A DNA stretch of 64,000 bases from Fimbriimonadaceae bacterium (GCA_020850355.1 JADZEX010000091.1:35755-99754), one strand, 5' to 3'; shown: positions 3,897 through 59,653, counted from the stretch's first letter. Translations and numbers: made by a program. Notes: generated by a model from the sequence alone, not told the origin.

Positions 3897-3903
3897 GCGC
3901 CCC

Positions 3904-4014
3904 GTTTCACGTGAAACAGGCCGGGCCGACCATCACGGCGCGAGGCGGTTTCACGTGAAACAGGCCGGACCAGCCGCCACGGCGCGACGGCCGGGGTGGT
4001 GTTTCACGTGAAAC
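3904..4014. repeat. array of 3 palindromic repeats (core GTTTCACGTGAAAC) at 3904, 3948, 4001
   Basis: Seen in sequence; spacing 44 and 53 bp; first two units share extended similarity (..AGGCCGGnCC..CACGGCGCGA..). Confidence 0.9.
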
Positions 4015-4048
4015 GGCCACCTGCCATCGCGCAGGGAGGCGGTCGGGC

Positions 4049-8435: not shown

Positions 8436-8544
8436 CTGTTTCACGTGAAACAGCGCTGCACTGGCCCCGCCTGCCCACCTGCTGTTTCACGTGAAACAGC
8501 TCCCGACGGAGCGCGCCACCGACGGTCTGTTTCACGTGAAACAG
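8436..8544. repeat. array of 3 palindromic repeats CTGTTTCACGTGAAACAG at 8436, 8482, 8527
   Basis: Seen in sequence; periodicity 45-46 bp; positions confirmed by CFT-stop/FHVKQ artefact ORFs in the track. Confidence 0.9.
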
Positions 8545-19303: not shown

Positions 19304-19427
19304 CTGTTTCACGTGAAACTCGCGCCGGGCCCCGCCGCCCCCGCGCTGTTTCACGTGAAACAGACAGCCGCCGCGATGGCCCGCAGCGATCCAGCAGCCG
19401 GGCTGTCGCCCGTTTCACGTGAAACAG
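19304..19427. repeat. array of 3 palindromic repeats at 19304, 19346, 19412
   Basis: Seen in sequence between the NERD gene and the homocysteine methyltransferase gene. Confidence 0.9.
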
Positions 19428-30308: not shown

Positions 30309-30423
30309 GTGTTTCACGTGAAACACCGGCCCCGCCGGAGCCCAGCCGGCTGCGCCCGGGCCTCCGTTTCACGTGAAACAGCGTTTGGCGCCGGGCCGGT
30401 GCGAGCTGTTTCACGTGAAACAG
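30309..30423. repeat. array of 3 palindromic repeats at 30309, 30366, 30406 (first extends to 24-bp perfect palindrome CCGGTGTTTCACGTGAAACACCGG)
   Basis: Seen in sequence between two minus-strand genes. Confidence 0.9.
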
Positions 30424-40169: not shown

Positions 40170-43100
40170 ATGCGGTGGGAGTTCCAGTTACTCGGGGGCC
40201 TCGCGGCGCGCTGCGGCGAGCGGGAGGTGGCGGAGTTCCGGAGCAGCAAGGGGCGCGGCGTCCTGGCTCGGTTGCTGCTGCAAACCGGCGAGCGCCTGCG
40301 GCGGGCGGTGGTGGCCGCGGAGTTCTGGCCCGAGTCCGAAGCTCGCAGCGCCCTCAACTCGCTGACCACCGAACTCTCGAAACTCCGGCAGGCGCTGCAC
40401 TGCGACGCGGTTGAAGACCGGCGGCTGCTGCCGCCGGGGCAGCGCGAGATCTGGATCGACGCGGGCCTGGTCCGCACCGACCTGCAGGCGTTTGAGCAGA
40501 CGGTGGCCGAGTTCGACGCGTTGGGACGGCGGGGCGAGCCCGCCGAGCTGACCTTGGCACGGTTGCGGTTGTGCGGCGGAGAGCTGCTGCCAGAGCTCGA
40601 GGGTACCTGGCTGACCAGCCGCCGGACCGCTGTGCGGCAGGCCTGGCTGCGGCTGGCGGCCGGCGCGGCCGAAGGTCTGCGGAGCGCCGGACGGATGTCC
40701 GCCGCGGCGGCGTTGGCGCACCAGGCGGTGCAGTACTACCCGCTCGACGAACCGGCGCTGCGCTTCGCGATGCGGTTGCTCGCCGATCTGGGTGAGACGG
40801 CTGCCGCGTTGCGACAGTACGAAGCCCTGCGAGCCCGGCTGCACACGGGCTATGGCCTGGCTCCGGCGGCCGAGACCAGCGACCTGGCAGCCGACCTCGG
40901 CGCCGACCTGGCAGCCGGAGCCGACCAGCGCGCCGAGGAGCTGGCCGCGGCGGCGACTCAGCAGATCGCGCACGGCCGACTCCGAGCGGCCGAGCTGGGG
41001 CTCCGGCGGGCTCTCGTCACGGGTCTCCGAGGCCCGGCGGCAGCACAGGTACAGCGGCAACTGCGTGCCGTGTCGCGGGCGCTCCCGCCGGTGGTCTGGG
41101 AGCGCGCCACCGGGCGAACCGTGGTGGACGGTGTGGTGCGTCGCGACGGCGCGGTGCTGCTGTGCCACCCGGCCGGGAGGTGGTCGTGCTGGCGGACCGG
41201 GCAGGCAACACCAGTGGTCGAGGGCCAGTGTGGCGACGGCCTGGTCCTGGGGTCCTGGCTGGGCCGGTCCGCCGAGCTGGTGTTGGCGGCGGCCACCGGT
41301 GAGTTGCACTGGCAGTCGTTGGCGGCGTCGCGGCCCCGGGCCACGGCGCATGTCCCAGGGCCACCGCTGGCGCTGACCACCTCGCCGGACCGGCGCTGGG
41401 CGGCAGTCGGCCTGGAGCGCCACGGCGTAGTGCTGTGGGACCTGGCGCACGACGAGCTGTACGAACTGCCGGCGATCACACGAGCAGACTGCCTCGCCTT
41501 TGCGCCGAACGGGGCCCGACTGGCGGCCGGAGCCCGCAGCGGTGAGCTGACCGTCTGGGAGCTGGCGACCGGGCAGGCGGTGTGGCAGACCCAGCAGCCG
41601 GGCGCTGTGCGCGGGCTGGCCTGGTCGCCAGACGGGTTGTTGCTGGCCACGGCGGGCGGCGATCATCGGGCGCGGATCTGGCAGTGGGACGGCCGTGGTG
41701 GGGCCATGCAGGAGCTGCCACATGGGGACCGGGCAGTGCACGCCGTGGCCTGGCTGGCGCGCGGCGAGCGACTGGTCAGCGTAGCCGGCGACGGTCGTCT
41801 GCGGAGCTGGCCTGGGGCCACCGCGGCGGGCCAGGCGACGGTGGTCAGCCTGGGCGGCGACCTGACGCGGCTCTGGGGCCATCCAGATGGGCACCACGTG
41901 TTGGCGTTGACCGCGCATGGTGTCGCCCACCTGGTGGACCTGGCCGCGGAGCCGGCGGCGGACCTCGAGGCCGTGGGAGAGGGGCTCGCGGCAGTCGGCT
42001 TTGTCGGCACGCGGGGCGATCTGCTGTTGGTTGAGGCGGCCGGCAGTCTCCGACAACTCGACCTGATGGCCGCCGGACCGGACCGGGCGCTGCTGCATGC
42101 ATCCGGCTGCCACGTGGCGCGCGCCGTATGGTCGCCGGACGAGCAACGCCTGGTGACCGCCGGCACCGACGGCGGCGTGCGAGTCTGGAGCGCCGCCGGT
42201 CGACTGGAGCAGAGTTGGCAACTGGCCGAAGTGGTGCGCGAGGTGGTCTGGGACCAGTCCGGGGGCCTGCTGGCGCTGACCGCTGAGGGAGAGCTGGTGG
42301 CGCTGGCCCGGGACGGCCTGGCCCGCCGTGACCACCTGCCTGGAGCGCCGATGCGGCACCTCGAGCTGCGTCCGGCCGAAGGCCTGTTGCTGGCCGCCAG
42401 TGGCACTGCGGTGCGCTGGTGGAGCTGGCCGACCTTTCGCCTCCAAGGTGGCTTCGAGGTCGCCGGCCACTGCCGCGCGGTCGCCCTGTCGCCAGACGCC
42501 CGGGTGGTCTACGTGGCGGAACTGGGTGGCCGCGTGACCGCCCGGCGCCGGACGGGCGAGCTGCTGTGGGAGCGGGCGCTGGACCGGGCGCCGTGGCGCC
42601 TGGTGGTGACCGCGTCAGGTCTGCTCGTGGCCGGCACCTCGCCGGCGGTGCTGCTGGCAGCGGCCGACGGCGAACCGGTCGGGGCGGGCTGGCCGCATCC
42701 GGGCGAGTGCCACCAGGTCGCCCTTGACCCAGCCCAGAAACGTGTGGCGCTGACGACCAGCGCAGGGCCGGTCTTGGTGGTCGATCCGGCCCGGCCACAG
42801 CAGGCAGCGGTGGTGCTGGAACGCCGCCGATGGGGTCTGTGGAGCGAGTTCACGGCAGCCGGCACGCTGCTGGCCGCCGGCGACGATGGCGAGGTCCGGG
42901 AGTTCTGTACTGCCAGTGGCCGGCTCTTGGTCCCGCCCCGCCCGGTTCCGGCGCTGGTCCCCTTTCTGAGCCAGCGCCAGGCCGACGGCCAGATCACCGC
43001 CACCTGCGGCGATGGTCGCGTCTACTTCTGGCACGCTGCCGCCCACGGCCAGGCGGCGCCCGCGGCGGCGCCTGCGGCGACTCCCGTCGCACGCGCCGTT

Positions 43101-43796
43101 TGGCACGAGCGGCAGGCTGCCAACTGCGCCCAGGCCGGGTTGCCGGCTGGCGCGTGGTGGCATCTGCAGCGCGCGCTGCGAGCGCAGCCCACGGAGGCCT
43201 GGAACTGCTGGCAAGCCGCCCTGGCCGCCTGGGAGGTGGGCCGCCCGGATCGGACCGCAGCCCTGCTGCGCCGCGCCAGTGCCCTCACCAGCGATCCGCG
43301 CCCCGCGGCTGATGCGCTGCTGTTGGCTGCCTGGCGCGACGGTGCTGGGGCGGTCGCTCCCGCGGCCGAGCGGCTGCTCGCAACCGTGACAGCGCTGGGC
43401 CGCAGTCCGCTCGCCTGGCAGGCGCTCCGCCGCTGGCTGGTGATTGCCGAGTGGGCTGACCTGGTACGAGCACTGCCGGCAGACCTGCTGGAGAGCGCAC
43501 CGCACCTCGCTTCGGCGGCCCGGTTGGAGGTGCTGGCGGCCTGGCACCTGCGCTGTCAGCGGAATGTCCTGGCTGCCGCCACCATCGACCGGTGCTGGTC
43601 TGCCGCCCGCCATCAGCGCTCGCTCTGGGCGTCCGCGGTACGGGCCTTGGCGCTACAGCGCCTGGGCCGCTGCGAAGGTGGGCTAGCTGCCGAGCATGCC
43701 CGGGCCCTGGCCGTTGCGACCGCCAGCGATCCCGTCTGGCCGCACCGCATCGAGGCTGCCTGTTGGCAGCGCGAGCTGACGCTGGCCGGCGGCTGA
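40170..43796 (+). CDS. SARP-family (OmpR-type wHTH plus BTAD) regulator fused to WD40 repeats and C-terminal TPR-like region
   Basis: Track ORF, 1208 aa; GGGAGGGG upstream; N-terminal MRWEFQLLGGLAA...ALRFAMRLLADLGETAAALRQYEALRARL (BTAD); WD40 units (LATAGGDHRARIWQW, VTAGTDGGVRVWSA); no P-loop seen. Confidence 0.65.
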   Translation: MRWEFQLLGGLAARCGEREVAEFRSSKGRGVLARLLLQTGERLRRAVVAAEFWPESEARSALNSLTTELSKLRQALHCDAVEDRRLLPPGQREIWIDAGLVRTDLQAFEQTVAEFDALGRRGEPAELTLARLRLCGGELLPELEGTWLTSRRTAVRQAWLRLAAGAAEGLRSAGRMSAAAALAHQAVQYYPLDEPALRFAMRLLADLGETAAALRQYEALRARLHTGYGLAPAAETSDLAADLGADLAAGADQRAEELAAAATQQIAHGRLRAAELGLRRALVTGLRGPAAAQVQRQLRAVSRALPPVVWERATGRTVVDGVVRRDGAVLLCHPAGRWSCWRTGQATPVVEGQCGDGLVLGSWLGRSAELVLAAATGELHWQSLAASRPRATAHVPGPPLALTTSPDRRWAAVGLERHGVVLWDLAHDELYELPAITRADCLAFAPNGARLAAGARSGELTVWELATGQAVWQTQQPGAVRGLAWSPDGLLLATAGGDHRARIWQWDGRGGAMQELPHGDRAVHAVAWLARGERLVSVAGDGRLRSWPGATAAGQATVVSLGGDLTRLWGHPDGHHVLALTAHGVAHLVDLAAEPAADLEAVGEGLAAVGFVGTRGDLLLVEAAGSLRQLDLMAAGPDRALLHASGCHVARAVWSPDEQRLVTAGTDGGVRVWSAAGRLEQSWQLAEVVREVVWDQSGGLLALTAEGELVALARDGLARRDHLPGAPMRHLELRPAEGLLLAASGTAVRWWSWPTFRLQGGFEVAGHCRAVALSPDARVVYVAELGGRVTARRRTGELLWERALDRAPWRLVVTASGLLVAGTSPAVLLAAADGEPVGAGWPHPGECHQVALDPAQKRVALTTSAGPVLVVDPARPQQAAVVLERRRWGLWSEFTAAGTLLAAGDDGEVREFCTASGRLLVPPRPVPALVPFLSQRQADGQITATCGDGRVYFWHAAAHGQAAPAAAPAATPVARAVWHERQAANCAQAGLPAGAWWHLQRALRAQPTEAWNCWQAALAAWEVGRPDRTAALLRRASALTSDPRPAADALLLAAWRDGAGAVAPAAERLLATVTALGRSPLAWQALRRWLVIAEWADLVRALPADLLESAPHLASAARLEVLAAWHLRCQRNVLAAATIDRCWSAARHQRSLWASAVRALALQRLGRCEGGLAAEHARALAVATASDPVWPHRIEAACWQRELTLAGG

Positions 43797-43834
43797 GCCG
43801 GCTGGACCGTCGCCACGTCAGCGCCCGCCGCGCC

Positions 43835-43850
43835 GTTTCACGTGAAACAG
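43835..43850. repeat. single palindromic repeat GTTTCACGTGAAACAG between convergent genes
   Basis: Seen in sequence. Confidence 0.9.
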
Positions 43851-45827: not shown

Positions 45828-45944
45828 GTGTTTCACGTGAAACAGCGGTCCGCGTGGTCGGCCGGCTCGCGATGCTGCGGGGTGTTTCACGTGAAACAGT
45901 GCGCCCCACGCCGGCCGCGGTGCCGCGTGTTTCACGTGAAACAG
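45828..45944. repeat. array of 3 palindromic repeats GTGTTTCACGTGAAACAG at 45828, 45882, 45927
   Basis: Seen in sequence in divergent intergenic region. Confidence 0.9.
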
Positions 45945-48040: not shown

Positions 48041-48994
48041 ATGCATCTGCCCGACGGGTTCCTCAGTGCGCCGGTCAGCACGGTGCTGGCGGCTGCCAGC
48101 TTTGGTGGCCTGGGCGCCGCGGTGCGCCGCAGCCGGCCGGCGGTCGACGCGCCCGTGGTGACGCCGCTGCTGGGGGTGGCGGCGGCGTTCGTGTTTTGCG
48201 CCCAGATGTTCAACTTCCCGATTTCCGGCGGCACCACCGGCCACCTGCTCGGCGCGGCGCTGGTCACCGCGCTGCTGGGACCCTGGCGAGCGATGCTGGT
48301 GATGGCCAGCGTGCTGCTGGTGCAGGCGCTGATCTTCGCCGACGGCGGGGTCGTGGCGCTGGGGGCCAACCTCTTCAACATGGCGGTGGCGGCGCCGCTG
48401 CTGGCGGGGCTGGTGCAGGGTCTGGTGCAGCGTGCCGGCCGGCAGGCCCGCTGGACCCGGGAGGTCGGCCTGGCGGTCTCGGCGTGGCTGACGGTGCAAC
48501 TGGCGGCGGCCTGCTGCGCCGTGGAGATCGCGTTTTCGGGCACTGCGCCGCTGGCCGTGGTGCTCCCGGCGATGCTGGCCGTGCACGCCGTGATCGGACT
48601 CGGCGAGGCGCTGCTCAGCGTGGCGGCCTATCGTGTGGTGGTCGGAGCCCGGCCCGAGTTGGCGGGGCACGAGCGGCCGGTCGCCGAGCTGGCGACGATG
48701 GAACTGTGGCGGCTGGCGGCGATGCTGGCGCTCGGCCTGCTGGTGGTCGCTTTGGCCTTCCCTTACCCGGATGGCCTGGAGTGGGTGGCCGAGCAGCAGC
48801 AGTTTGGCCACCACGCCCGCGACGGCTTCGCGGCGGCGCCGCTGCGCGACTACGCCGTGCCTGGCCGCCCGGTTGGGAGCGGCTTCGATTGGTTCGGCAG
48901 CTACCTCTCGGCGATCCTCGGCGCCGCGTTGTGCGGCGGGCTGATGCGGTGGCTCGGCCGAGCCGGCCGCCAGGCTCCGGATGACGCCTCGTGA
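48041..48994 (+). CDS. cbiM: ECF transporter substrate-specific component CbiM (cobalt/nickel), possibly with fused CbiN-like C-terminus
   Basis: Track ORF; characteristic N-terminus MHLPDGFLS; polytopic membrane protein. Confidence 0.75.
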   Translation: MHLPDGFLSAPVSTVLAAASFGGLGAAVRRSRPAVDAPVVTPLLGVAAAFVFCAQMFNFPISGGTTGHLLGAALVTALLGPWRAMLVMASVLLVQALIFADGGVVALGANLFNMAVAAPLLAGLVQGLVQRAGRQARWTREVGLAVSAWLTVQLAAACCAVEIAFSGTAPLAVVLPAMLAVHAVIGLGEALLSVAAYRVVVGARPELAGHERPVAELATMELWRLAAMLALGLLVVALAFPYPDGLEWVAEQQQFGHHARDGFAAAPLRDYAVPGRPVGSGFDWFGSYLSAILGAALCGGLMRWLGRAGRQAPDDAS

Positions 48995-49788
48995 GCTGGC
49001 CGCTGTGGGCCCAACTGCTGGCCATCGCCGCCTGCGGTGCGGCAGGACTGACCCTCACCCGGAGCCTCTTCGCGGCCGACGCGACCCGTGCCCAGCTCGG
49101 GTTGGAGGTCAGCCGCGGCGACTCCCTGCTGCACCGCACGCCCGCGGTCTGCAAGTTGCTCGGCCTGCTGGCCCTGGCGGTCAGCGCGGCGCTGTTGCCC
49201 CCGGCCGGGCTGAGCGTCCCTGGCGCGCTGGTGCTGCTGCTGCTGGTCGCGGCGCGGTTGCCGCTGCGGGCGGTGGCCGCGCGGGCCGCCGAACTGCTGC
49301 CCTTGGCGCTGATCGTCGCCGTCGGGGCTCTGCTGCGCGGCGACCCGGTCTTGTTCGTGGCGACGCTGGGCCGGGCGCTGATCACGGTCGCCGCGGTGGT
49401 CGCGCTGACTCTGAGCACGCCCCAGCCGGAGATTCTGCGGGCCGCCCGCCGGCTCGGGTTGCCGGCGCCGCTGGTCGAAATCATCGCGCTGCTGCTGCGC
49501 TACCTGGTGGTGGTGCTGGACGAGGCCAACCGGCTGGCGCTGGGGTTCAGCCTGCGGGCGGTCGGGCCGCGTGACTTGCGGCTCGCGCGACCGCTGGGAC
49601 GGGTGATCGGCGCCCTGGCGGTGCGCAGCCTCGAGCGCGGCGAGCGCGTGCATCAGGCGATGCTGGCGCGCGGCTACGACGGCACCTGGCCAGCGCTGCA
49701 GCGGGCGCCCGCACCGTCGGTCGCGGCGTGGCTGGGCTGCGGGCTGTTCCTGTCGCCGTTGCTGGCGGCGCTAAGCTACTGGCGATGA
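48991..49788 (+). CDS. cbiQ: ECF transporter transmembrane (T) component CbiQ
   Basis: Track ORF; GTG start overlaps cbiM stop (GTGA); polytopic, EcfT-like. Confidence 0.7.
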   Translation: MSWPLWAQLLAIAACGAAGLTLTRSLFAADATRAQLGLEVSRGDSLLHRTPAVCKLLGLLALAVSAALLPPAGLSVPGALVLLLLVAARLPLRAVAARAAELLPLALIVAVGALLRGDPVLFVATLGRALITVAAVVALTLSTPQPEILRAARRLGLPAPLVEIIALLLRYLVVVLDEANRLALGFSLRAVGPRDLRLARPLGRVIGALAVRSLERGERVHQAMLARGYDGTWPALQRAPAPSVAAWLGCGLFLSPLLAALSYWR

Positions 49789-50510
49789 GCGATCCGGCGC
49801 TGGCCTTCAGGCAACTCAGCTACGCCTACCCCGACGGCACCGCGGCGCTGCGGTCGGTCTCGTTCGCGCTGGCTCCCGGCGAGCGAGTCGGGCTGGTCGG
49901 GCCGAACGGCGCCGGCAAGTCAACTCTGCTGCTGCACGCCGTTGGGCTGCTCCCGGCCCGGGGCGCCGTGCTGGTCGGCGGTCTCGACCCGGACCGCGTC
50001 CCGCGGGAGGTGCGGCAGCAGGTCGGGCTGCTGTTCCAGAATCCCGACGACCAGTTGTTTCTGCCGACGGTCGCTGAGGATGTCGCCTTCGGGCCGCTCA
50101 ACCTCGGACTGTCCGCCGCAGACGTCGAGCAGCGCGTGGCCACCGCCCTGGCGCAGGTTGGGCTGACCGGCCTGGGCGCCAAGCTGCCGCAGCATCTCTC
50201 GTTGGGGCAGCGCCGCCGCGCGGCGTTGGCGACGGTCCTGGCGATGGGCTGCCAGACGCTGGTGCTGGATGAGCCGACCGCCAACCTGGACCCCGGCGGG
50301 CGACGGCAACTGCTGGCGCTGCTGACGCAGTTGCCCGGCGCGCTGCTGCTGGCGACCCACGACCTGGAAGCCGTGCTGCAGCTCTGCCCGCGGGTGGTCG
50401 TGCTGCGCGCTGGCGAGGTCGTGGCCGATGGCGAGACCGCCGCGCTCTTGGCTGATCCCGAGCTGATGCAGCGCTGCGAGCTGGAAGTGCCTTGGCCGCT
50501 GCGCCGTTGA
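49785..50510 (+). CDS. cbiO: ECF transporter ATP-binding component CbiO (ABC ATPase)
   Basis: ATG at 49785 overlapping cbiQ stop (ATGA); Walker A GPNGAGKST, signature LSLGQRRR, Walker B LVLDEPTANLD. Confidence 0.85.
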   Translation: MSDPALAFRQLSYAYPDGTAALRSVSFALAPGERVGLVGPNGAGKSTLLLHAVGLLPARGAVLVGGLDPDRVPREVRQQVGLLFQNPDDQLFLPTVAEDVAFGPLNLGLSAADVEQRVATALAQVGLTGLGAKLPQHLSLGQRRRAALATVLAMGCQTLVLDEPTANLDPGGRRQLLALLTQLPGALLLATHDLEAVLQLCPRVVVLRAGEVVADGETAALLADPELMQRCELEVPWPLRR

Positions 50511-50529: not shown

Positions 50530-51579
50530 CTAACGCGGGCCGGCGGCCCGACACTCGCGCAGGATGGTGGTGTAGGTCTCTTCCCAGCGGTGCTCCGGGA
50601 CGTCTTCGGTGACGCCCACGATGAACCCGCGGCCGTCGCCGGACTCGCGGATCATCTGCCGCGTGACCGCAGCGACCGTCGCGGCATCGGCCAGGTGCAG
50701 CGAGCTCGGGAAGTTGATCCAGAGCGCCTTGTCCGGCCAGACCTGGCGGGCCTCGGCGACGGTTAAGTCGCAGTCCGGCGAGGGCGTCAGGGCTTCGATG
50801 TAGTCCAGCGAACTGCGCGCCACGAGGTCGGCCCACAGGCGGTTGTTGTCGTCGAGGTGTGAGCCGACCAGCTTGCCGCCGCGGTGCAGAATCGCGCAGG
50901 CCTCTTCGATCGGCCCCAGGACGAACTCCTCGAAGTTGGCCCGGCCCAGGATACTGGGGCTGTGGTTGCCGCCAAGGTTGACGGTCCACGCCGGCGAGTC
51001 GGCGATCAGCTCGCAGATCTCCCGGAAGCTGCGGTGCAGCGCGGCGATCAGGGCGAGGCACTCGGCGCGGTGGTCCATCCACTCGTAGCCGAAGGTCAAC
51101 GAGCCCATGTAGTGGCTGATCAGCGTCTGGATCGGGATGTTGCTGGTGCCCACCCGTTGGTGCGCGTCCTCGCCCCAGCGGCGGCCGGCGGCCAGGAACG
51201 GCTCCGGAGCGGGCTGCCAGGTCTCGGCCTCGATCATCGCCAGCAGCGGCTCGAAGTCGGCGACCGACTTGTAGAGATGCTCGTGGGTCCAGGTGGTGTA
51301 CCCGAGCGGCTCAACGACGGTGGTCAGCTCGCCGGCCGCGGTGGTGAAGATCCGCCGCTCCAGGCGCCGACCGTCGCGCACGAACGATTCGCTGCGCCAG
51401 CTCACCCCGCGCGGCCCGCCGCCGAAGACCCCAGCGCGGCGATCGACGATGCACAGCCCGTCGTTGCGCAACTGCCGCTCCACCGCCGAGGTCGGCAGCT
51501 TGCTCTCGTAGACGGTGAACGGGATCCAGTCGACCGGTTCCCAGCGCAGCGCGGCGGCGACACGTTCGCGAGGGCTCAT
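50530..51579 (-). CDS. uroporphyrinogen decarboxylase (URO-D) family protein, not canonical HemE (MtaA/CmuA-like)
   Basis: Track ORF; overall URO-D-like length and composition; lacks the HemE N-terminal RQAGR motif. Confidence 0.55.
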   Translation of the reverse strand: MSPRERVAAALRWEPVDWIPFTVYESKLPTSAVERQLRNDGLCIVDRRAGVFGGGPRGVSWRSESFVRDGRRLERRIFTTAAGELTTVVEPLGYTTWTHEHLYKSVADFEPLLAMIEAETWQPAPEPFLAAGRRWGEDAHQRVGTSNIPIQTLISHYMGSLTFGYEWMDHRAECLALIAALHRSFREICELIADSPAWTVNLGGNHSPSILGRANFEEFVLGPIEEACAILHRGGKLVGSHLDDNNRLWADLVARSSLDYIEALTPSPDCDLTVAEARQVWPDKALWINFPSSLHLADAATVAAVTRQMIRESGDGRGFIVGVTEDVPEHRWEETYTTILRECRAAGPR

Positions 51580-51628: not shown

Positions 51629-51673
51629 TTGACCAGCTCGTAACGCTGCCGTTACAGCCGCCCGCTGTAACAG
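51629..51673. promoter_or_regulatory. overlapping inverted repeats (GTAACGctgcCGTTAC; GTTACAGccgcccgCTGTAAC) in divergent promoter region, with TTGACC -35-like hexamer
   Basis: Seen in sequence between the URO-D-like gene and the DUF1549/DUF1553 operon. Confidence 0.3.
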
Positions 51674-51769
51674 TTCGGACAACCGCCTAAGTCGTCCGCA
51701 AGATGAGTGGTGAGCCGATCCATGCGGCTACCGGGAGCGCGCGCCTCCCGGATTGGGAGGTCTCCGGCG

Positions 51770-53962
51770 ATGCGTTCGGTCCGCGCCACAACCTGGGCAG
51801 TGCTGGCGGTGCTCGCGGCCGGAGTCCGGGTCCACGGCCAGGGCGCCAGTCGGCCGGTCTACTTCGTGCGCGACGTCGCGCCGATCTTCGACCGCGAGTC
51901 GTGCAGCTCGTCGCCCTGCCACGGCAAGTTCGGCGGCGGCCAGGGCCGGCTGCAGCTCTCCCTGATGACGCTCTCCCCGGAGGCCGACTTCGCTGGGCTG
52001 GAGCCGCTGATCGATCTCCAGAACCCCGCCAACAGCGTGCTGTTGCAGAAGCCCAGCGGCAAGTCGCCACACGCTGGTGGGCGGCGCTTCCGGGAGAATG
52101 CCAAGGAGTACCAGACGATTCTGCGCTGGATCCAGGAAGGCTGCCGCAACCCGACTCGCGAGCCGCTGCCGGTGCGGCTGCGGGTGACTCCGGAGCGCTT
52201 CAACTTCACGCCCGACAAGAACCAGGGCCGGATTCAGGTCACCGCCGAGTTCGCCGATGGGTCGGCCGAGGACGTCACGGACCGCACCCGGTTCATCAGC
52301 CCGGACGAGGAACAGGTCGAAGTGACTCCGGCGGGCTACGTCACGATGCAGCGCTGGGGCCTGACCAACGTCGTCTGCCGCTACGTTGGGCTGACCAAGG
52401 CGGTGTTCATCTCGCTGCCGCGCCCCAAGACCGCTGCCGACCCGGCCCCGCCGAAGGTGGCCGCGGGCAACCTGGTCGACGCGCTGGTCCACAAGAACCT
52501 CGAGTGGCTGAACATCAACCCGGCTCCGCGCTGCGACGACTACACCTTCCTGCGGCGGATCTACCTTGACCTGGTCGGGGCCCTGCCCGATCCGGCGACG
52601 ATTCGGGCGTTTGTGAAGGACCCCGATCCGAGCAAGCGGGCGAAGCTGGTGGACCAGTTGCTGGACGACCCGCGGTTCGTCGCGATGCGCACGCTGCGGC
52701 TCGGGGACATGCTGCGGATCAACCCGCGCAAGCTGGCCAATGGTCCGTTGCAGGCCCGCGCGGCGATGATCTTCGACGACTGGCTGCGCCGCAGCGTGCG
52801 CGACAACAAGCCGTTCAACAAGCTGACCCACGAGCTGGTCAACGCCCGCGGCTCGACGATGCTCAACGGCCCGGCCAACTTCTACCGCGTCGAGCGCTCG
52901 CCAGAGAACCGCGCCGAGACGATCGGGCAGGCTTTTCTGGGCGTGCGCCTGAGCTGCGCACGCTGCCATAACCATCCCTTCGACCGCTGGAACACCGACG
53001 ACTACTGGGAGTTCGCGGCGTTTCTGGCAAAGATCCGCGAGCGCGGCGCCGAGCTGTTTGACGACCGCGAGCTGTACGTCGACAACAAGGCCCAGCTTCG
53101 CAACCAGGCGGTGACCAGCAAGAAGAAGGGCCAGGTGGCGGTGCCGACCTTCCTCGGCGGACCGAGCCTGCCGCAGGAGCAGTTCCAGGGCGACTACCTG
53201 CAGGCGCTGGCCGACTGGATCACCAACGACGACAACCCGTACTACGGCAAGGCCACCGTGAACCGCGTCTGGTCGCACTTCCTGGGCCGCGGGGTGGTGA
53301 CGCCGGTCGACGACATTCGCGAGACCAGCGTCGCCGCGGTGCCGGCGTTGTTGACGCTGTTGGCGCAGGAGTTCCGCCGCACCGGCTACGACACGAAGCA
53401 GTTGATCCGCCTGATCGTGACCAGCGAGACCTACCAGCGGTCCAGCAGCAGCGACACCACCAACGAGCTGGACAACCGCTTCTTCAGCCACTTCCAGCCG
53501 AAGCAGATGCTGGCGCAAGTGTTGCTGGACGCCATCAACACGGCCTGCGGCACCTGGGACCAGTACGCCAGCTTCCCACGAGGGACCACCGCGGTGGAGC
53601 TGCCGCTGATGGTCAACAACGACTTCCTGGACCGCTTCGGACGCAGCAACCGGGAGTTTCTGGCGACGCTCGACCCGCACGCCGAGCCGACCATGCCGCA
53701 GACGCTGCATCTGATCAACTCCGGGTACATCAACGGCAAGATCACCTCGCGCGAGGGAACCGTGGCGACCCTCGAACCGCAGCTTCGGGACGACCGCGTG
53801 CTGGTCGAAGAGCTCTACCTGCGGACCCTCTGCCGCCCGCCGAGCGCTGGCGAGCTGGAGCAGGTCCTGGGATACCTTAAGAAGATCCCAAACCGCCGCG
53901 AGGCGTTCGAGGATCTCCTGTGGGCGCTGATCAGCTCGCGGGAGTTTGTGTTCATCAGTTAG
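51770..53962 (+). CDS. DUF1549/DUF1553 domain protein (Planctomycete PSD1-type), secreted
   Basis: ATG at 51770 after GGGAGG; signal peptide; motif SCARCHNHPFDRW typical of DUF1549; N-terminal Cys-rich segment. Confidence 0.7.
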   Translation: MRSVRATTWAVLAVLAAGVRVHGQGASRPVYFVRDVAPIFDRESCSSSPCHGKFGGGQGRLQLSLMTLSPEADFAGLEPLIDLQNPANSVLLQKPSGKSPHAGGRRFRENAKEYQTILRWIQEGCRNPTREPLPVRLRVTPERFNFTPDKNQGRIQVTAEFADGSAEDVTDRTRFISPDEEQVEVTPAGYVTMQRWGLTNVVCRYVGLTKAVFISLPRPKTAADPAPPKVAAGNLVDALVHKNLEWLNINPAPRCDDYTFLRRIYLDLVGALPDPATIRAFVKDPDPSKRAKLVDQLLDDPRFVAMRTLRLGDMLRINPRKLANGPLQARAAMIFDDWLRRSVRDNKPFNKLTHELVNARGSTMLNGPANFYRVERSPENRAETIGQAFLGVRLSCARCHNHPFDRWNTDDYWEFAAFLAKIRERGAELFDDRELYVDNKAQLRNQAVTSKKKGQVAVPTFLGGPSLPQEQFQGDYLQALADWITNDDNPYYGKATVNRVWSHFLGRGVVTPVDDIRETSVAAVPALLTLLAQEFRRTGYDTKQLIRLIVTSETYQRSSSSDTTNELDNRFFSHFQPKQMLAQVLLDAINTACGTWDQYASFPRGTTAVELPLMVNNDFLDRFGRSNREFLATLDPHAEPTMPQTLHLINSGYINGKITSREGTVATLEPQLRDDRVLVEELYLRTLCRPPSAGELEQVLGYLKKIPNRREAFEDLLWALISSREFVFIS

Positions 53963-53984
53963 GCCCGACCAAGGGAGCCCCACA

Positions 53985-55334
53985 ATGCCCATCGACGAGA
54001 CCGGGATCCATACCGACTACTGCGACGGCCACGCCCGGCGCGATGTGCTGAAGGCTGGCGTGCTGGGGATGTTCGGCCTCAGCCTGAGCGGCTTCCTGCA
54101 GGCCCAGGCGGCGCAGGCCCAGACCGCTGCGGCGGGCGAGGCCGCGGCTGCCACCGCGCCGCGCGGCAAAGCCGACGCCTGCATCTTGCTGTTCCTGGCC
54201 GGCGGCCCGTCGCACCTCGATAGCTGGGACCCCAAGCCGAGCGCGCCCGAGGAAGTGCGCGGCAGCTTCAAGACCGTCGCCACGAAGCTGCCGGGGGTGC
54301 AGTTTGGGGAGCACATGACGCGCTGCGCGCAGATCGCCGGGGACCTCACGGTGATCCGCTCGATGACCTCGAAGGAGGCCGACCACGAGCGCGGGACGCA
54401 CTACCTGATGACCGGCTATCCGCCGCTCCCCGGCTTCGGGGTGCCGGCGGTGGGCAGTGTCGTCTCGAAGCTGCTGCCGTCCCGCAGCGTGCTGCCGCCG
54501 TACATCGCGGTGCCCAGCCCGGTGCAGTACGGCGGCGCTGGCTTCCTGGGCGCCGCGCTGGACCCCTTCAGCCCTGGCGGCGACCCCAGCAATCCGGGCT
54601 TCCGGGTGCGCGACCTGGCGCCCGAAGGCGGGCTGAGCATCGAACGGGTGGACCGCCGACAGTCCTTGCGGCAGGCGGTTGATGCCAGCTTCGCGCGGCA
54701 CGAGAAGTCGTCCGACGCGGCGCGAGCGGTCGATGAGTTCTACAAGTCGGCCTACGGGCTGATTTCCTCCAGCGAGGCCCGTGCAGCCTTCGACGTCGCC
54801 AAAGAGCCAGACGCCATGAAGGACCTCTATGGGCGCAACAGCCTGGGGCAGTCGTGCCTCCTGGCGCGCCGCCTGGTGCAGGCGGGGGTGCGCTTCGTGA
54901 CGGTCCAGAACGGCGGCTGGGACACCCACAACAACGGCTTCCAGGCGCTTGCCGGCAAGCTGCCGCCGCTCGACCAGGCGGTCGCGGCGCTGGTCACCGA
55001 TCTGAAGCAGCAGGGCATGTTGGAGCGGACGATGGTGCTGGTGATGGGCGAGTTCGGGCGCACCCCGCGGGTCAACCCGCAGGGCGGCCGCGACCACTAC
55101 CCGCAGTGCTTCAGCGTGGTGGCGGCCGGCGGTGGCTGGCAGCGCGGGGCGGTGGTCGGCTCGTCCGACGCGACCGGCGCCAATGTTGCCGAGCGCGGCG
55201 TCAAGCCGGAGGACCTCACGGCGACCGTCTACACGCTGCTGGGAATCGATCCCGACAGCGACCTCCACTCGCCCGAGGGCATCCGAATCGTGCTCAGCCG
55301 CGGCGGCGTCGCCGTGCGGGAGGCGCTGGCGTGA
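53985..55334 (+). CDS. DUF1501 domain protein (sulfatase-like fold, Tat signal; PSD2-type)
   Basis: ATG at 53985 after AGGGAG; twin-arginine-like RRDVLKAGVLG; DUF1501-like motifs (DSWDPK, TVQNGGWDTH). Confidence 0.75.
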   Translation: MPIDETGIHTDYCDGHARRDVLKAGVLGMFGLSLSGFLQAQAAQAQTAAAGEAAAATAPRGKADACILLFLAGGPSHLDSWDPKPSAPEEVRGSFKTVATKLPGVQFGEHMTRCAQIAGDLTVIRSMTSKEADHERGTHYLMTGYPPLPGFGVPAVGSVVSKLLPSRSVLPPYIAVPSPVQYGGAGFLGAALDPFSPGGDPSNPGFRVRDLAPEGGLSIERVDRRQSLRQAVDASFARHEKSSDAARAVDEFYKSAYGLISSSEARAAFDVAKEPDAMKDLYGRNSLGQSCLLARRLVQAGVRFVTVQNGGWDTHNNGFQALAGKLPPLDQAVAALVTDLKQQGMLERTMVLVMGEFGRTPRVNPQGGRDHYPQCFSVVAAGGGWQRGAVVGSSDATGANVAERGVKPEDLTATVYTLLGIDPDSDLHSPEGIRIVLSRGGVAVREALA

Positions 55335-58219
55335 ACCGCTCACGGCGGAGCTGGCTGTGGCTCGTGCTGCTCTCGTCGGCGGCCCTGGCGCAGGGCCCGC
55401 CGCGGCTGCAGGCGGTCTTCCCGGCCGGCGGCCGGGCCGGCAGCACCGTCGACGTGGTCCTGCGCGGGGGCCTCTCGGGTGCCTCGCAGATGTTCATCTA
55501 CGGCGAGGGCGTGAGCGGCGAGCTGCAACGGCGCGAAGGCGCCAGCGATGCCAACGGCCGGCGGCTGTTCAACCAGAAGTGCGCCACCTGCCACGAGTTG
55601 CGCTCGCCGGCCAACCGCCAGATGGCGCCGCCGCAGTGGGAGGCGACGGTCGACCGGATGATCAACCAGCGCGGCGCCGACATCAACGCCGCCGACCGCA
55701 AGTTGATCGTGGACTTCCTGCGCGCCGAGGCCGCGGCCGGCGTGGTGCTCGGCAAGGTGACCATCGCCGCCGATGCCAAACCGGGCCTGCGCGAGATTCG
55801 CGTGCTCACCGCGGCGGGTGTCTCGACAGCCTTCCCGTTCTACGTCTCGGGGCTCCCCGAGACCGTCGAGCAGGAGCCGAACGACACGCTCGAGCAGGCC
55901 CGCGAGCTGAGCCTGCCGGCGGTGGTCAACGGCTGCTGCGAGCGGCCGGGCGACCGCGACTACGTCCGCTTCAGCGCCAGGCGTGGCCAACGGCTGCTGC
56001 TGCGCGCGACGGCCTACCGCCTCAACCAGGACTCCCAGAGCTACTTCTCGGCCTGCCTCTACCTGTACAACGCCGCCAAGCAGGAGATCGCCGCCAACCT
56101 GGGTTTCGAGGACCTCGACCCGTTGATCGACTTCACCGTGCCCGACGACGGGGTGTACACCCTGGAGTGCCGCGACCTGCTGTACCGCGGCGGCGCCGCC
56201 AATGTCTACCGGCTGGAAGTCGGCGAGCTGGGCTACCGGCAGAGCATCTATCCGCTCGGCGGTCAACGCGGTGCGGCGCTGCAGGCGCTGGTGACCAGCG
56301 AGAACCAGCCCCACCGCGAGTGGCAGACCACCCTGGCGGCCGACCAGCCGCTCGGGCTGCAGGAGTTCGACACGCCGTTCGGCCTCTTTCGTTTCCACGT
56401 CAGCGCCTACCCCGACATCTTGGACAGCGGTGAGAGTAAGCCGCAGAACGTGCGGCTGCCGTGCGTGATCAACGGCTGGCTGGGCCGGCCGGGTGAGGCC
56501 GACCGGTACGTGCTGAGCGTGCCGGACAGCGAGCCGCAGGTGGTGCGACGCTGGATGGTGGTCGGGCCGTTCGACGGGCAGGACATCGGCGGCCTGGAGC
56601 GCGCGTTTGACCCCGAGCGCGAAATCCTCGGTGGCCGCTTCGACCCGGCGCGGCAGTTCAGCGCCAAGGGCGGGCAGGAGGGTTGGGAGGCCAAGGACGC
56701 CGACGCCACGACCGGCGTGGTCGGCCTGCCGGCGGGCACCAACGAGGTCTGGTACGGCCTCTACTCGTTCGAGTCCCGGCAAGAGGCCTACGGCCTGCTC
56801 TCGATTGGCAGCGACGATGGCTGCAAGGTCTGGCTGAACGGCAGCGTCGTCCACAGCTTCAAGGGCAACCGGCCGGCGCGGCTGGCGACCGACCTGGTGC
56901 CAGTGCGGTTCCGCCGCGGGCCGAACATCGTACTGCTGAAGGTCTTCAACGCCTCGGGGCCGGGTGGCCTGGGCCTGGCCTCGGGCGCGCAGAAGATCGA
57001 TGTCTTCGCCCGCCGGCTGGGCTCCCCGCTGAAGCCGGTGCTGAAGCTGGGCTTCGGCACGCGCTGGCTGTTCCAGTCGACCAACGACTACGACTTCCCG
57101 CAGCGACCGGGCGGCGATGTGCGTTGCGACTGGAGCTTTGCGCAGGGCGGCGAGTACGGGCTGCAGCTCGAGGACGCCGACGGCGCGGGTGGTGAGCGGT
57201 ACGCCTACCGCATCGAGATCGGGCCGGCGCAGCCGAGCGCCACGCTAAAGGTCTTTCCGGCCAACCCGAGTCTGCCCCCGGGCGGCGCGGTGCCGCTGGT
57301 GGTCGAACGCAGCAGCCTGAGCGGCTACGCGGGCGACCTGCGGCTGGTCTTCGAAGGTCTCCCGGCGGGCGTGACGGTGGACGACGCGGTGCTGCCGGCC
57401 GATGTCCCGTCGACCGTCGTGGTGCTCCGGGCGGCAGCGGCCGCCAAGCCCGCGGCGACGGCGCTGCGGGTGTACGGTGAGGTGCCCAGCCTGAGCGGAC
57501 CGCAGCGCTTCGAGGCGACGCCGCAGGACTTCTACCGGATTCAGAACAACGCCTTCCCGATCAGCCGGCGCGGCCTGGTGGCCGCCGTGACCGAGGAAGC
57601 GGCCCCCTACACCTTGACCGCCAGCCCGGCCAGTGTGCCGGTCCGACCGGGGCAGAAGGCCGAGCTGACCGTCACGGTGGACCGCCGGCCGGGGTTCAAC
57701 CAGGACATCAACCTGATCCTGATGGGCCTGCCGCCGAATGTCAGCGGCACCTCGACGGTGATCCGCGCCGACCGGCGCAGCGCCACGCTGGAGCTGAACT
57801 TCAGCGGCAACCTCCGCAACAGCGCCTTCGGGCAGTCGCGGGTGGCGGACGCCTATCGCGTGGTGGCGGTCGGACTGAACGGCGGCGACGGCCTCAGCGG
57901 CGGGACGATGTACTGCAGCCAGCCGATTGTCCTGGAGCCCTACGACCCGACCCGCGAGCCGCGCCAGGCCACCCCACCAGCGACCGCTGGTGGCGCCCGA
58001 CCAGCCCCGAATGCAGGCGAAGCGGCCGGCCGGATGCTGCTCGAGCGGCGCTGCGTGGGCTGCCACGCGCTGTACGATCCCGAGGAAACCAAGAAGTCGC
58101 TGGCCGACTGGACCGCCACGGTCGACCGCATGATCCAAAAGGGCGCCCGCGTCTCGAACGCGGAGCGGGACCAGATTCTGACCTACCTCCGGGCGGTGAC
58201 TGCCCGCCAGACACGCTGA
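55331..58219 (+). CDS. large secreted protein with N- and C-terminal c-type cytochrome domains (CxxCH x2) and internal pre-peptidase-C-terminal-like domains
   Basis: GTG start overlapping upstream stop (GTGA); haem-binding motifs CATCHE and CVGCHA; signal peptide WLWLVLLSSAALA. Confidence 0.7.
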   Translation: MNRSRRSWLWLVLLSSAALAQGPPRLQAVFPAGGRAGSTVDVVLRGGLSGASQMFIYGEGVSGELQRREGASDANGRRLFNQKCATCHELRSPANRQMAPPQWEATVDRMINQRGADINAADRKLIVDFLRAEAAAGVVLGKVTIAADAKPGLREIRVLTAAGVSTAFPFYVSGLPETVEQEPNDTLEQARELSLPAVVNGCCERPGDRDYVRFSARRGQRLLLRATAYRLNQDSQSYFSACLYLYNAAKQEIAANLGFEDLDPLIDFTVPDDGVYTLECRDLLYRGGAANVYRLEVGELGYRQSIYPLGGQRGAALQALVTSENQPHREWQTTLAADQPLGLQEFDTPFGLFRFHVSAYPDILDSGESKPQNVRLPCVINGWLGRPGEADRYVLSVPDSEPQVVRRWMVVGPFDGQDIGGLERAFDPEREILGGRFDPARQFSAKGGQEGWEAKDADATTGVVGLPAGTNEVWYGLYSFESRQEAYGLLSIGSDDGCKVWLNGSVVHSFKGNRPARLATDLVPVRFRRGPNIVLLKVFNASGPGGLGLASGAQKIDVFARRLGSPLKPVLKLGFGTRWLFQSTNDYDFPQRPGGDVRCDWSFAQGGEYGLQLEDADGAGGERYAYRIEIGPAQPSATLKVFPANPSLPPGGAVPLVVERSSLSGYAGDLRLVFEGLPAGVTVDDAVLPADVPSTVVVLRAAAAAKPAATALRVYGEVPSLSGPQRFEATPQDFYRIQNNAFPISRRGLVAAVTEEAAPYTLTASPASVPVRPGQKAELTVTVDRRPGFNQDINLILMGLPPNVSGTSTVIRADRRSATLELNFSGNLRNSAFGQSRVADAYRVVAVGLNGGDGLSGGTMYCSQPIVLEPYDPTREPRQATPPATAGGARPAPNAGEAAGRMLLERRCVGCHALYDPEETKKSLADWTATVDRMIQKGARVSNAERDQILTYLRAVTARQTR

Positions 58220-58232
58220 CCACCGCCGCCGG

Positions 58233-58368
58233 CTGTTTCACGTGAAACAGCACCAGACCCCGGCCGCCAAGGTGGCGCTGCCGCGGCGGCGGGGCCAATC
58301 CGGTGAACCCCGGCGCTCCGGGCGCCGTGTTTCACGTGAAACAGCGCGAGGTGTTTCACGTGAAACAG
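58233..58368. repeat. array of 3 palindromic repeats at 58233, 58327, 58351 (last two only 24 bp apart)
   Basis: Seen in sequence between convergent genes. Confidence 0.9.
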
Positions 58369-58400
58369 CGCCCCACTCCGGTCGCCGTCAGCGATCCGTG

Positions 58401-59066
58401 CTACGGCTTGTCGGTGCGCAGGATCGTGATCAGCGTCTGGTTCGCGACGCGGGCGATGCTGACCGTGAACTGCACCTTGGGATGTACCTTGATCAACGTC
58501 GCGGTCCGCCCGGCGGCGGTGGTGCGGCTGGAGTTGGCCAGCAGCGGCTGACCCAGGGCCTGCTCATAGAAGGCGTGGGCCTCGGCGACGCTGGCGCTGG
58601 TGCTGAGCTGGACGATGGTGGTGCGCCCGCTGGCGGTGGTGCTGACGGTGGCGAGGCCCTGCTTGGCGCGCGGGAACAGGCGCAGCCCGAGGCTGGCGTC
58701 GGTGACGGTGGTGCGGCCGGGCACCTGCGGCGCCGCTTTCCCCGGCCGGGTCGCGGCCGGCGGGGCCGCTGCGGCGGGCCGGGTCGTCGTCGCGTTGGCG
58801 GCGGGAGCTGGCCGGCCGGGCGGCGCGTCGCGGTCGGACGGCGGCGGCGCTGGCGCGGCTGAGGAGTTGGGCAAGGCGGTCTCGGCCGCTGCCGGCGGGG
58901 CCTCGGCGGCGCTGGTCGGGGGCGCCGCGGCCGCCGTGGGCGGAGTCGCCGGCGGAGCCGCCCCGGCAGGCCGCTCCGTGGTCTGCGTCGCATCGCGAGG
59001 CACGCAGGCGGTCAGCAGGAGCATGGTGCACCCGGCCGCCGACCACCACCGAGTGAGTCTAAGCAT
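58401..59066 (-). CDS. lipoprotein with Pro/Ala-rich linker and small C-terminal domain
   Basis: ATG at 59066; lipobox LLLTAC; long PA-rich low-complexity linker. Start could instead be at 59102. Confidence 0.45.
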   Translation of the reverse strand: MLRLTRWWSAAGCTMLLLTACVPRDATQTTERPAGAAPPATPPTAAAAPPTSAAEAPPAAAETALPNSSAAPAPPPSDRDAPPGRPAPAANATTTRPAAAAPPAATRPGKAAPQVPGRTTVTDASLGLRLFPRAKQGLATVSTTASGRTTIVQLSTSASVAEAHAFYEQALGQPLLANSSRTTAAGRTATLIKVHPKVQFTVSIARVANQTLITILRTDKP

Positions 59067-59098
59067 ACTCGGCAGCGTGCCACCGGGCGCGGCTGCCG

Positions 59099-59653
59099 TC
59101 AAGCTGGCGGCGACCGCAGGACCACCCGCGCGCGTCGCAGTGGCTGGCCCGTGGCCCGCTGCCAGTAGCCGGGCGTCAGCTCCGCGGCCACGCTTTCGGC
59201 GCTGCAGGCGGGGTCGCGGCGGCGTTCGACCACCTCGTGCCGGCGCGGGTCGTAGGGCTCGCCGAGGGAGGTAAAGGCCTCGACGTCCTGCTCGGCCAGG
59301 AGCTGGCGAAGCTGCTCGCGCGGCAGCTCCAGCGAGCTCAGCCGCGCCAGCAACTCGGTCGGGTCGCTGCTGGGCTGGGCCGCCTGCAGGCTGTCGAGGC
59401 GGTCGAGGACGTCGAGCAGGCCGCGGGCCAAGGTGGCGAAACGGCGTTCCGAGGTCTCCTCGATCCGCCGCACGACATCCAAGAAGGCCTGCGCCGAGGT
59501 GGCCAGGCGCGCGTCGAGGACGTCGTCGATCGCCGCGCGGGTGGCCTGGACGACGGCCGTCAGCTGCGCCAGTTCGGCGGCGGTCGCCTGGTGGTCGCGC
59601 CAGGTCGATTCACGCAGCCCAATCAGGGCGGCGGCCAGGTCGGCGGTGCTCAT
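59099..59653 (-). CDS. GrpE-like nucleotide exchange factor homologue
   Basis: Track ORF; C-terminal region GEPYDPRRHEVV...PGYWQRATGQPLRRARVVL resembles GrpE; helical N-terminal half. Confidence 0.45.
   Translation of the reverse strand: MSTADLAAALIGLRESTWRDHQATAAELAQLTAVVQATRAAIDDVLDARLATSAQAFLDVVRRIEETSERRFATLARGLLDVLDRLDSLQAAQPSSDPTELLARLSSLELPREQLRQLLAEQDVEAFTSLGEPYDPRRHEVVERRRDPACSAESVAAELTPGYWQRATGQPLRRARVVLRSPPA

Follow-up and report, generated by a model that had tools for sequence, protein, structure and literature searches.

A haem-bearing variant of the PSCyt/PSD1-DUF1501-PPC module in a Fimbriimonadaceae genome

The 64,000-nt stretch of DNA considered here (GCA_020850355.1, JADZEX010000091.1:35755-99754; G+C content ~70%), hereafter called the window, carries an operon of three same-strand genes, g1, g2 and g3, that represents a haem-bearing variant of a known, uncharacterised module of exported proteins, PSCyt/PSD1-DUF1501-PPC, in a phylum in which it was not expected. 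The gene models are based on a listing of open reading frames combined with third-position G+C content and start-codon context. The coordinates given in a first-pass annotation of the window, the 962-aa length of the g3 product, its two CxxCH motifs (at 55580 and 58052) and the overlap of its GTG start with the preceding stop codon all proved to be correct. The Planctomycetota framing of that annotation, by contrast, has to be revised: all three proteins are found with identical sequence in a protein collection under the label of a Fimbriimonadaceae (Armatimonadota) metagenome-assembled genome (MAG), and the nearest relatives likewise come from Armatimonadota MAGs. The host is thus assigned by the label that the depositor gave and by the taxa of the best matches. 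The three genes had also been described as translationally coupled. This description holds for g2 and g3, where the TGA of the former (55332-55334) and the GTG of the latter (55331) overlap as GTGA, an arrangement that is kept in one of the related loci (L001), but not for g1 and g2, where a gap of 22 nt separates the stop codon from the following start without any overlap.

The module as such has been described before. Kamneva et al. (2012; PMC3542564) reported a 'four-gene cluster' from the Planctomycetes-Verrucomicrobia-Chlamydiae (PVC) bacteria that encodes a DUF1501 protein with a twin-arginine translocation (Tat) signal, a PPC protein, a PSCyt1/Big_2/PSCyt2/PSD1 protein and a PSCyt1/WD40 protein, and proposed for it a role in membrane targeting and electron transport, its function being unknown. 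The operon described here shares with that cluster the Tat-signal DUF1501 protein (g2), the PSCyt1/Big_2/PSCyt2/PSD1 protein (g1) and the PPC protein with a signal peptide (g3), which in both cases belongs to a family whose PPC domains are weak and whose other conserved regions bear no annotation. It differs from the cluster in its Armatimonadota host, in lacking a PSCyt1/WD40 gene, in carrying haem domains on the PPC protein, which are of the SorB/QHNDH-type class I and not PSCyt1, and in the PSCyt1-like domain of g1, which has a CX4CH motif and escapes the Pfam model. A search of the literature yielded no study that characterises DUF1501, DUF1549, DUF1553 or PSCyt functionally, and none dating from after Kamneva et al. 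(2012). The first-pass annotation called the pair of DUF1549/DUF1553 and DUF1501 genes functionally uncharacterised; the module containing it was already on record.

Let us consider the three proteins in turn (for coordinates, see Table 1). In g1, PSCyt2/DUF1549 (PF07583; 2.4e-46, 158.8 bits against a cut-off of 29.8) and PSD1/DUF1553 (PF07587; 1.8e-38, 132.8 bits against a cut-off of 28.5) are both clearly recognised by Pfam. To these can be added two haem-type motifs, CSSSPCH and CARCH, of which the first-pass annotation named neither. The first of them, kept as CSxxxCH in relatives, lies in an N-terminal region that resembles PSCyt1 by eye only: the Pfam model PF07635 finds no match in residues 26-237, and the motif is CX4CH rather than CxxCH. 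The second, CARCH, is kept in the haem-bearing relatives and is missing from the short PSD1 proteins of the haem-free triads discussed below. When the sequences of the PDB were searched with g1, the sole match was that of its Ig-like stretch to teneurin-like proteins.

The g2 product matches the DUF1501 family over practically its full length (PF07394; 2e-109, 366.8 bits against a cut-off of 27, profile positions 2-388 of 390). Its initial designation as 'PSD2-type' is a misnomer, because PF07394 differs from the Pfam domain that bears the name PSD2. The Tat signal attributed to it finds good support in its sequence, in which the RRDVLK motif is followed by a hydrophobic stretch, and the two arginines (R18 and R19) are invariant both in 32 and in eight DUF1501 homologues; the module as a whole is exported, probably to the periplasm. 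A structure prediction, which had been proposed as a way of locating the active site, was informative in part: g2 is predicted to adopt the core alpha/beta fold of the alkaline phosphatase superfamily, and among the three subunits it would be the only one with an enzyme-like fold, but the loops of the metal site are modelled with a predicted local distance difference test (pLDDT) score below 50, which leaves the catalytic residues without a placement in three dimensions. What links g2 to the superfamily (NPP/ENPP, type I sulfatases, PafA/PhoK and phosphonate monoester hydrolases) at the level of residues is its conserved clusters of Asp, His, Ser and Thr (S76, H77, D79, D82, T128, H134, D313 and H315, along with E356, R359 and H371). 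A set of Ser, His, Asp, Glu and Arg residues, together with the twin arginine, is invariant even in distant relatives. What sets g2 apart from the superfamily is an identity of just 10-18%, the Tat signal and the lack of any match at the sequence level in the PDB, where a search with g2 itself found nothing. A search of the PDB with a profile made from the DUF1501 alignment returned only a marginal sulfatase match, over the DHGR region, with which EFGR of g2 aligns, so that sulfatases have Asp-His where g2 has Glu-Phe. A formylglycine motif (CxPxR or SxPxR) was sought in g2 and none was found, and g2 was for this reason rejected as a formylglycine (type I) sulfatase; its score with the Pfam Sulfatase model is 14.6 bits against a cut-off of 25. 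In none of the loci compared does the DUF1501 protein carry a haem motif of the CX4CH or CxxCH kind.

The architecture of g3 could be predicted with greater detail, by an AlphaFold2 model built on 113 homologues (pLDDT 90.5; predicted template modelling score 0.85). The signal peptide is followed by an Ig-like domain (residues 26-66 and 138-179) into which a first cytochrome domain (73-136) is inserted, then by the first PPC domain, another Ig-like domain (305-364), the second, split PPC domain, three further Ig-like domains (638-870), a linker of low confidence and, at the very end, a second cytochrome domain (895-961). The PPC domains find their match in ColG/ColH, the jelly roll in GH2 and the haem domains in the QHNDH alpha subunit. 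In the case of PPC, Pfam (PF04151) falls short of its cut-off (16.3 versus 25.9 bits), the fold match to ColG/ColH is strong, and many of the homologues are annotated as PPC proteins; unlike these clostridial collagenases, g3 has no peptidase domain. The protein is therefore best described as a modelled multi-domain binding scaffold of ~960 aa with two separate predicted monohaem domains of the SorB/QHNDH type, and the name 'dihaem cytochrome c' given to it at first should be abandoned, the more so as the DHC model (PF09626) requires 22.2 bits and scores only 16.2 on the whole protein and 14.0 on the C-terminal domain.

That the CxxCH motifs of g3 lie in cytochrome folds, as the first-pass annotation had presumed, is supported in three ways. 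First, residues 73-131 exceed the cut-offs of three Pfam models (Dehyd-heme_bind, 37.5 bits; Cytochrome_CBB3, 31.6 bits; Cytochrom_C, 26.5 bits), and the whole protein matches the NCBIfam model of SorB with an E-value of 5.4e-14. The C-terminal domain, taken alone, scores 4.1e-5 with Dehyd-heme_bind (QHNDH), at 23.7 bits against a cut-off of 25.2, and 6.3e-6 with SorB. Second, in an alignment of ten full-length relatives of g3, C84, C87, H88 and Met110 are invariant, and C908, C911, H912 and Met934 are shared by 90% of the sequences or more, the Cys, Cys, His and Met residues being kept in the nine relatives that retain each domain. Third, both domains are modelled as three helices. In view of this conservation, and of the alignment with SorB, in which the conserved Met falls under the Met of SorB (2blf_B), Met110 and Met934 would be the sixth ligands of the two haems. 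Judging by sequence, the haem sites of both g1 and g3 are probably of the c type.

Table 1. Features of the operon and of its borders; positions are counted from the first letter of the window
Feature	Position	Strand	Details
Overlapping inverted repeats	51640-51671	.	Divergent intergenic region; candidate protein-binding sites
Shorter inverted repeat	51640-51655	.	GTAAC-N6-GTTAC; overlaps the longer repeat
Longer inverted repeat	51651-51671	.	GTTACAGC-N5-GCTGTAAC; perfect 8-bp repeat, 5-nt spacer
g1	51770-53962	+	730 aa; ATG after GGGAGG; signal peptide MRSVRATTWAVLAVLAAG; order: signal peptide, PSCyt1-like, Big_2-like Ig, PSCyt2, PSD1
g1 CSSSPCH (CX4CH)	51902-51922	+	aa 45; in the PSCyt1-like N-terminus
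g1 Big_2-like Ig domain	~52208-52405
g1 PSCyt2/DUF1549	52475-53038
g1 CARCH	52955-52969	+	aa 396; inside PSCyt2
g1 PSD1/DUF1553	53204-53875
g2	53985-55334	+	449 aa; Shine-Dalgarno sequence AAGGGAG; twin-arginine motif RRDVLK at 54036-54053
g3	55331-58219	+	962 aa; GTG start; GGGAGG at 55318-55323, 8 nt upstream of the start
g3 signal peptide	55331-55396	+
g3 haem domain 1	55547-55738	+	aa 73-136; CATCH at 55580-55594; Met110; predicted three-helix class I cytochrome c
g3 PPC domain 1	55868-56224	+	aa 180-298; collagen-binding-type beta sandwich, preceded by an EPND motif
g3 PPC domain 2	56444-57226	+	aa 372-397 and 560-632; split by the inserted jelly roll
g3 jelly roll	56549-57007	+	aa 407-559; resembles the GH2 N-terminal sugar-binding domain
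g3 C-terminal Ig-like domains	57242-57940	+	aa 638-870; AlphaFold2 model and weak fn3_5 match
g3 haem domain 2	58013-58213	+	aa 895-961; CVGCH at 58052-58066; Met934; three helices predicted
Three copies of the palindrome	58232-58369	.	(GC)TGTTTCACGTGAAACA(GC); right after the g3 stop, convergent intergenic region; fold z -5.0
Palindrome sites in the window	3903-4015, 8437-8543, 19305-19426, 30310-30422, 43834-43849, 45829-45943, 58234-58367

Are there known redox systems with which such an arrangement could be compared? The SorAB sulfite dehydrogenase comes to mind, because both g3 haem domains are most similar to SorB, and because here, too, a subunit with a Tat signal (SorA) is paired with a Sec-type cytochrome subunit (SorB). 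The parallel ends there: the operon has no molybdenum-cofactor subunit, the Tat partner has the predicted alkaline phosphatase fold, and the haem domains, which score 52 and 26 bits against a SorB cut-off of 93, are embedded in a scaffold of 962 aa. As an equivalog of SorB (NF052246; 52 bits), g3 was accordingly rejected, and a search of PDB sequences with it gave a marginal SorB match only. The other candidate for comparison is QHNDH, whose alpha subunit has a haem domain of the same family (PF09098; 37.5 bits, cut-off 25.2). The beta subunit of QHNDH is a propeller, and genes for a WD40 beta-propeller protein accompany those of g3 relatives. On the other hand, the haems of g3 do not form a contiguous dihaem domain, there is no propeller gene in the operon, and domain scans of the flanking genes detected neither a QHNDH gamma subunit nor QHNDH maturation genes beside it. 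As a QHNDH alpha subunit proper (TIGR03908), g3 was rejected at 32.9 bits against a cut-off of 274, with only the haem domain contributing.

The order g1-g2-g3 is conserved well beyond the window, in loci of the Armatimonadota and of the Planctomycetota type. It is kept in the Armatimonadota-type loci L001, L002 (the same locus as L010), L003/L004 and L009, with g3 identities of 41-59%, and the same genes occur in L085 from Chthonomonas (40%), where a WD40 gene is placed between g2 and g3. The order PSD1-DUF1501-PPC is found also in L090-L092, which are haem-free, have gaps of 4-61 nt between the genes and encode distant, shorter PPC proteins. Furthermore, the closest homologues of g1 and g2 share contigs with homologues of g3. 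A scan of genomes, one per species, yielded 166 relatives of g3, of which the best 80 were kept, nearly all of them from Candidatus Poribacteria. Among these 80 loci, a DUF1501 gene lies upstream of g3 on the same strand in 68, a gene for a 346-aa WD40 propeller stands between the two in 66, and a PSD1 gene adjoins in just three; a WD40 gene is present in 74 of them, as it is in L005 and L085. The order typical of Poribacteria is therefore DUF1501-WD40-g3 (for example in L013, 3208-8916, and ~66 other loci), with a signal peptide on the WD40 protein, and full-length orthologues of g1 with 45-50% identity exist in these bacteria as well. A homologue of this WD40 protein is not encoded in the operon studied here, the sole match in the window being an unrelated BTAD/WD40 gene (40170-43796) with 23% identity. 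Hence, the module is not PVC-specific; it occurs in Armatimonadota and, in a common sister form, in Ca. Poribacteria. The wider g3 family comprises 985 cluster representatives at E<=1e-30.

Two further observations were made in these relatives. In L009, ~290 nt of G/C-rich DNA with complementary runs (ccctcccctgc / gggggagggc; 5714-6000) separate the stop codon of the DUF1501 gene from the point at which similarity to g3 sets in, at the place of the 4-nt overlap in the window. In L006 (6025-10319), from Verrucomicrobia, a haem-free PPC protein follows a 624-aa beta-propeller protein that has two CxxCH motifs and a faint CCP_MauG match, with no DUF1501 or PSD1 gene nearby; this represents another way in which the scaffold is paired with haem.

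A comparison of the related loci separates haem-bearing from haem-free versions of the module. In five of the six haem-bearing loci (the window, L001, L002/L010, L009 and L005), the PSD1 protein is 720-775 aa long and carries both CX4CH and CARCH, and the PPC protein has one or two CxxCH motifs; in the sixth, L085, PSD1 is truncated such that only CARCH can be read, in agreement with the pattern. In the four haem-free loci (L007, L090, L091 and L092), a PSD1 protein of 519-548 aa has neither motif, and the PPC protein is devoid of CxxCH. This distribution is suggestive of a joint gain or loss of the haem motifs on g1 and g3, as far as can be judged from a small sample of loci that are not phylogenetically independent. 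The second haem domain of g3 has a history of its own. It is C-terminal in the clade of the window and sits in the middle of the protein, ~300 residues after the first, in Poribacteria, and proteins of the Chthonomonas type have the first domain only. The two placements argue for two separate additions, and the difference in position suggests that there was selection for having two haems. To what extent are these findings new? The presence of SorB/QHNDH-type haem domains on the PPC protein, which mark a minority branch of the g3 family, appears not to have been described before, and the same seems to apply to the differing positions of the second haem and to the co-variation of haems between subunits. 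Taken at face value, it could still be argued that the three genes are mere neighbours and that their CxxCH motifs arose by chance. We consider this extremely improbable, since the order and linkage of the genes are conserved across phyla, and since the motifs are conserved, fall into recognised cytochrome c folds and co-vary between subunits.

What can be said of the borders of the operon? The inverted repeats reported from the divergent region upstream of g1 are real, but their proposed function as an operator fared less well. It could be imagined that the longer repeat is bound by a dedicated repressor of the operon and, possibly, also of the divergent URO-D-like gene (see below). Its 8-bp arms match perfectly across 5 nt, it is relatively A/T-rich for a genome of 70% G+C, and it occurs once in the window, where it is one of only two A/T-containing repeats of the kind apart from a repeat family. 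A TTGACC hexamer (51629-51634) precedes it by 17 nt, which would be a plausible position for the site of a repressor. However, shuffling this 190-nt intergenic region produces an equally perfect 8-bp repeat, spaced by <=10 nt, in 5.7% of cases, the repeat is absent upstream of both L001 and L002, no regulator gene adjoins the operon, a scan for sigma-70-type promoters found none, and the RNA fold of the leader is ordinary (z -0.18), all of which makes the operator idea doubtful. A scan of the whole window with Rfam gathering thresholds gave no matches, hence no riboswitch or known RNA in the leader, and terminator-like sites, one of them inside the 3' end of g1, occur at chance level.

At the other end, the segment that follows g3 folds far better than shuffled sequence, and its triplet of palindromes probably is a hairpin-forming element, akin to repetitive extragenic palindromic (REP) sequences, that marks the 3' boundary of the operon. 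The underlying 16-bp perfect palindrome, TGTTTCACGTGAAACA, is often extended to the 20-mer GCTGTTTCACGTGAAACAGC and is found 19 times in the window with at most one mismatch, compared to 0.05 times expected by chance. Most of these sites are intergenic triplets spaced by 24-94 nt from start to start, in which the spacers differ and the palindromes alone are conserved. Of 88 related loci, 87 lack the exact 14-bp core, GTTTCACGTGAAAC, and L032 has one copy of it. The family looks like a genome-specific REP-like element.

As to the neighbouring genes, g3 is convergent with a gene (58401-59102, minus strand) for a 233-aa Ala/Pro-rich protein that has a lipoprotein-like N-terminus (LLLTAC) and no match in Pfam or NCBIfam. 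Divergent from g1 is a gene (50530-51579, minus strand) for a 349-aa protein with a weak, partial match to URO-D (uroporphyrinogen decarboxylase, methyltransferase-like). It was rejected as a haem-biosynthesis partner of the operon, as the Pfam match is weak and partial, NCBIfam gives none, and the gene is not kept beside homologous operons. Convergent with it, in turn, is a cobalt-uptake operon (48041-50510, plus strand) encoding CbiM(+PDGLE), CbiQ and an ABC-ATPase. Farther away (36553-39363, plus strand), a protein of 936 aa contains two FGE-sulfatase (formylglycine-generating-enzyme-like) stretches; because g2 lacks the formylglycine motif, there is no evident link between this protein and the operon. 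With DUF1501/PSD1, this large FGE-sulfatase protein, and WD40/BTAD and PD40 proteins, the gene content of the window may be called 'planctomycete-like'.

What, then, might the module do? The hint at an 'extracytoplasmic redox module' in the first-pass annotation is supported by gene order and cytochrome domains in the sense of an extracytoplasmic module with the capacity for electron transfer; the haem sites point to electron transfer, without revealing the chemistry that it serves. Of the two outcomes that the annotation had named as refuting it, a gene order that varies and CxxCH motifs outside cytochrome-like folds, neither was obtained. In the reading that we favour, g1, g2 and g3 would form one periplasmic complex. 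The g3 scaffold would hold the substrate, which would be either polymeric or bound to a surface and most likely is a glycan. With its metal centre loaded before Tat export, g2 would act on a phospho- or sulfo-ester-like group of that substrate. The His/Met haems of g3 and the haem sites of g1 would together make up an inter-subunit path for electrons to the periplasmic redox pool, and would thereby add a redox step to a core that is able to work without haem. It is conceivable that in this step the substrate or the product is oxidised or reduced, or else that the redox state of the metal centre in g2 is controlled. Taken as a whole, with the complex, the substrate-binding g3, the metal-dependent g2 and the haem link to the redox pool, we would give this reading a probability of roughly 0.45.

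A number of observations weigh against it. Haem-free triads exist in the very same gene order (L007 and L090-L092), and 212 of the 265 g3-family members sampled contain no CxxCH motif, with one (N-terminal) found in 42 and two in 11; redox chemistry therefore cannot be the core function and, since the haem-free triads are complete, should be seen as an addition to that function, not as the core itself. The g2 model is only moderate (pLDDT 70, and below 50 in the loops of the metal site), and we know of no member of the alkaline phosphatase superfamily that is an oxidoreductase. Among the genes identified in the window, none is for cytochrome c maturation. In Poribacteria, the g1 orthologue lies ~3 Mb from DUF1501-WD40-g3 in the one genome checked (OY282374.1). 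Finally, the neighbourhood past the three genes is not conserved and offers no clue to the substrate.

Some of these facts would also sit well with a purely hydrolytic and binding complex for an extracytoplasmic polymer, whose haem domains would stay out of catalysis and would be sensors of redox state or gas, or docking modules, that tune its activity or localisation. Not only do the haem-free triads keep the order of the genes, they also keep the core residues of DUF1501, most members of the g3 family do without a haem motif, the likeness of g2 is to hydrolases and transferases only, and g3 is dominated by domains of the binding type. Against this proposal speak the apparent joint gain of haem motifs on two subunits, a second g3 haem domain that appears at two positions and is more reminiscent of a multi-centre electron path than of a single sensor, and a SorB/QHNDH alpha domain type known from electron-transfer subunits; we deem it rather unlikely. 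The opposite extreme would be a device devoted mainly to electron transfer, in which g3 anchors itself via its PPC domains and jelly roll to an insoluble or polymeric donor or acceptor, electrons cross its two haems, and DUF1501 and PSD1 are accessory. The modelled position of the haem domains, towards either end of the row of binding domains, and the fact that the nearest types of cytochrome domain belong to dedicated electron-transfer subunits would accord with such a device. Yet with ~820 residues of sequence between them, the two haems could serve as a wire only if they came close together in the fold, DUF1501 rather than a cytochrome is the partner that is universally conserved, and haem-free versions are in the majority; this possibility is distinctly improbable to us. 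Somewhat less far-fetched, albeit still unlikely, is that the haem-bearing triad is an unrecognised periplasmic redox enzyme, in which DUF1501 either performs electron transfer or is gated by it, three to four c-type haems are spread over PSCyt2/PSD1 and the QHNDH-alpha-like scaffold, and the WD40 propeller serves as a fourth subunit in sister lineages.

Returning to the favoured reading of a haem-linked, substrate-binding complex, why should it matter what this module does? In Planctomycetota and Verrucomicrobia, few families of unknown function have expanded as much as DUF1501 and PSCyt/PSD1, which have been without an assigned activity since they were first described between 2004 and 2012. 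The module is now found in Armatimonadota and is near-universal in the sampled genomes of Ca. Poribacteria, and its occurrence beyond the PVC group weakens the link that has been proposed to PVC-type internal membranes. The PPC scaffold emerges as the constant partner of DUF1501. The locus does leave the DUF1501/PSD1 problem unsolved, but the natural contrast between haem-free and haem-bearing versions of the same module provides an experimental handle with which to attack it, and one that could decide between redox and hydrolytic chemistry.

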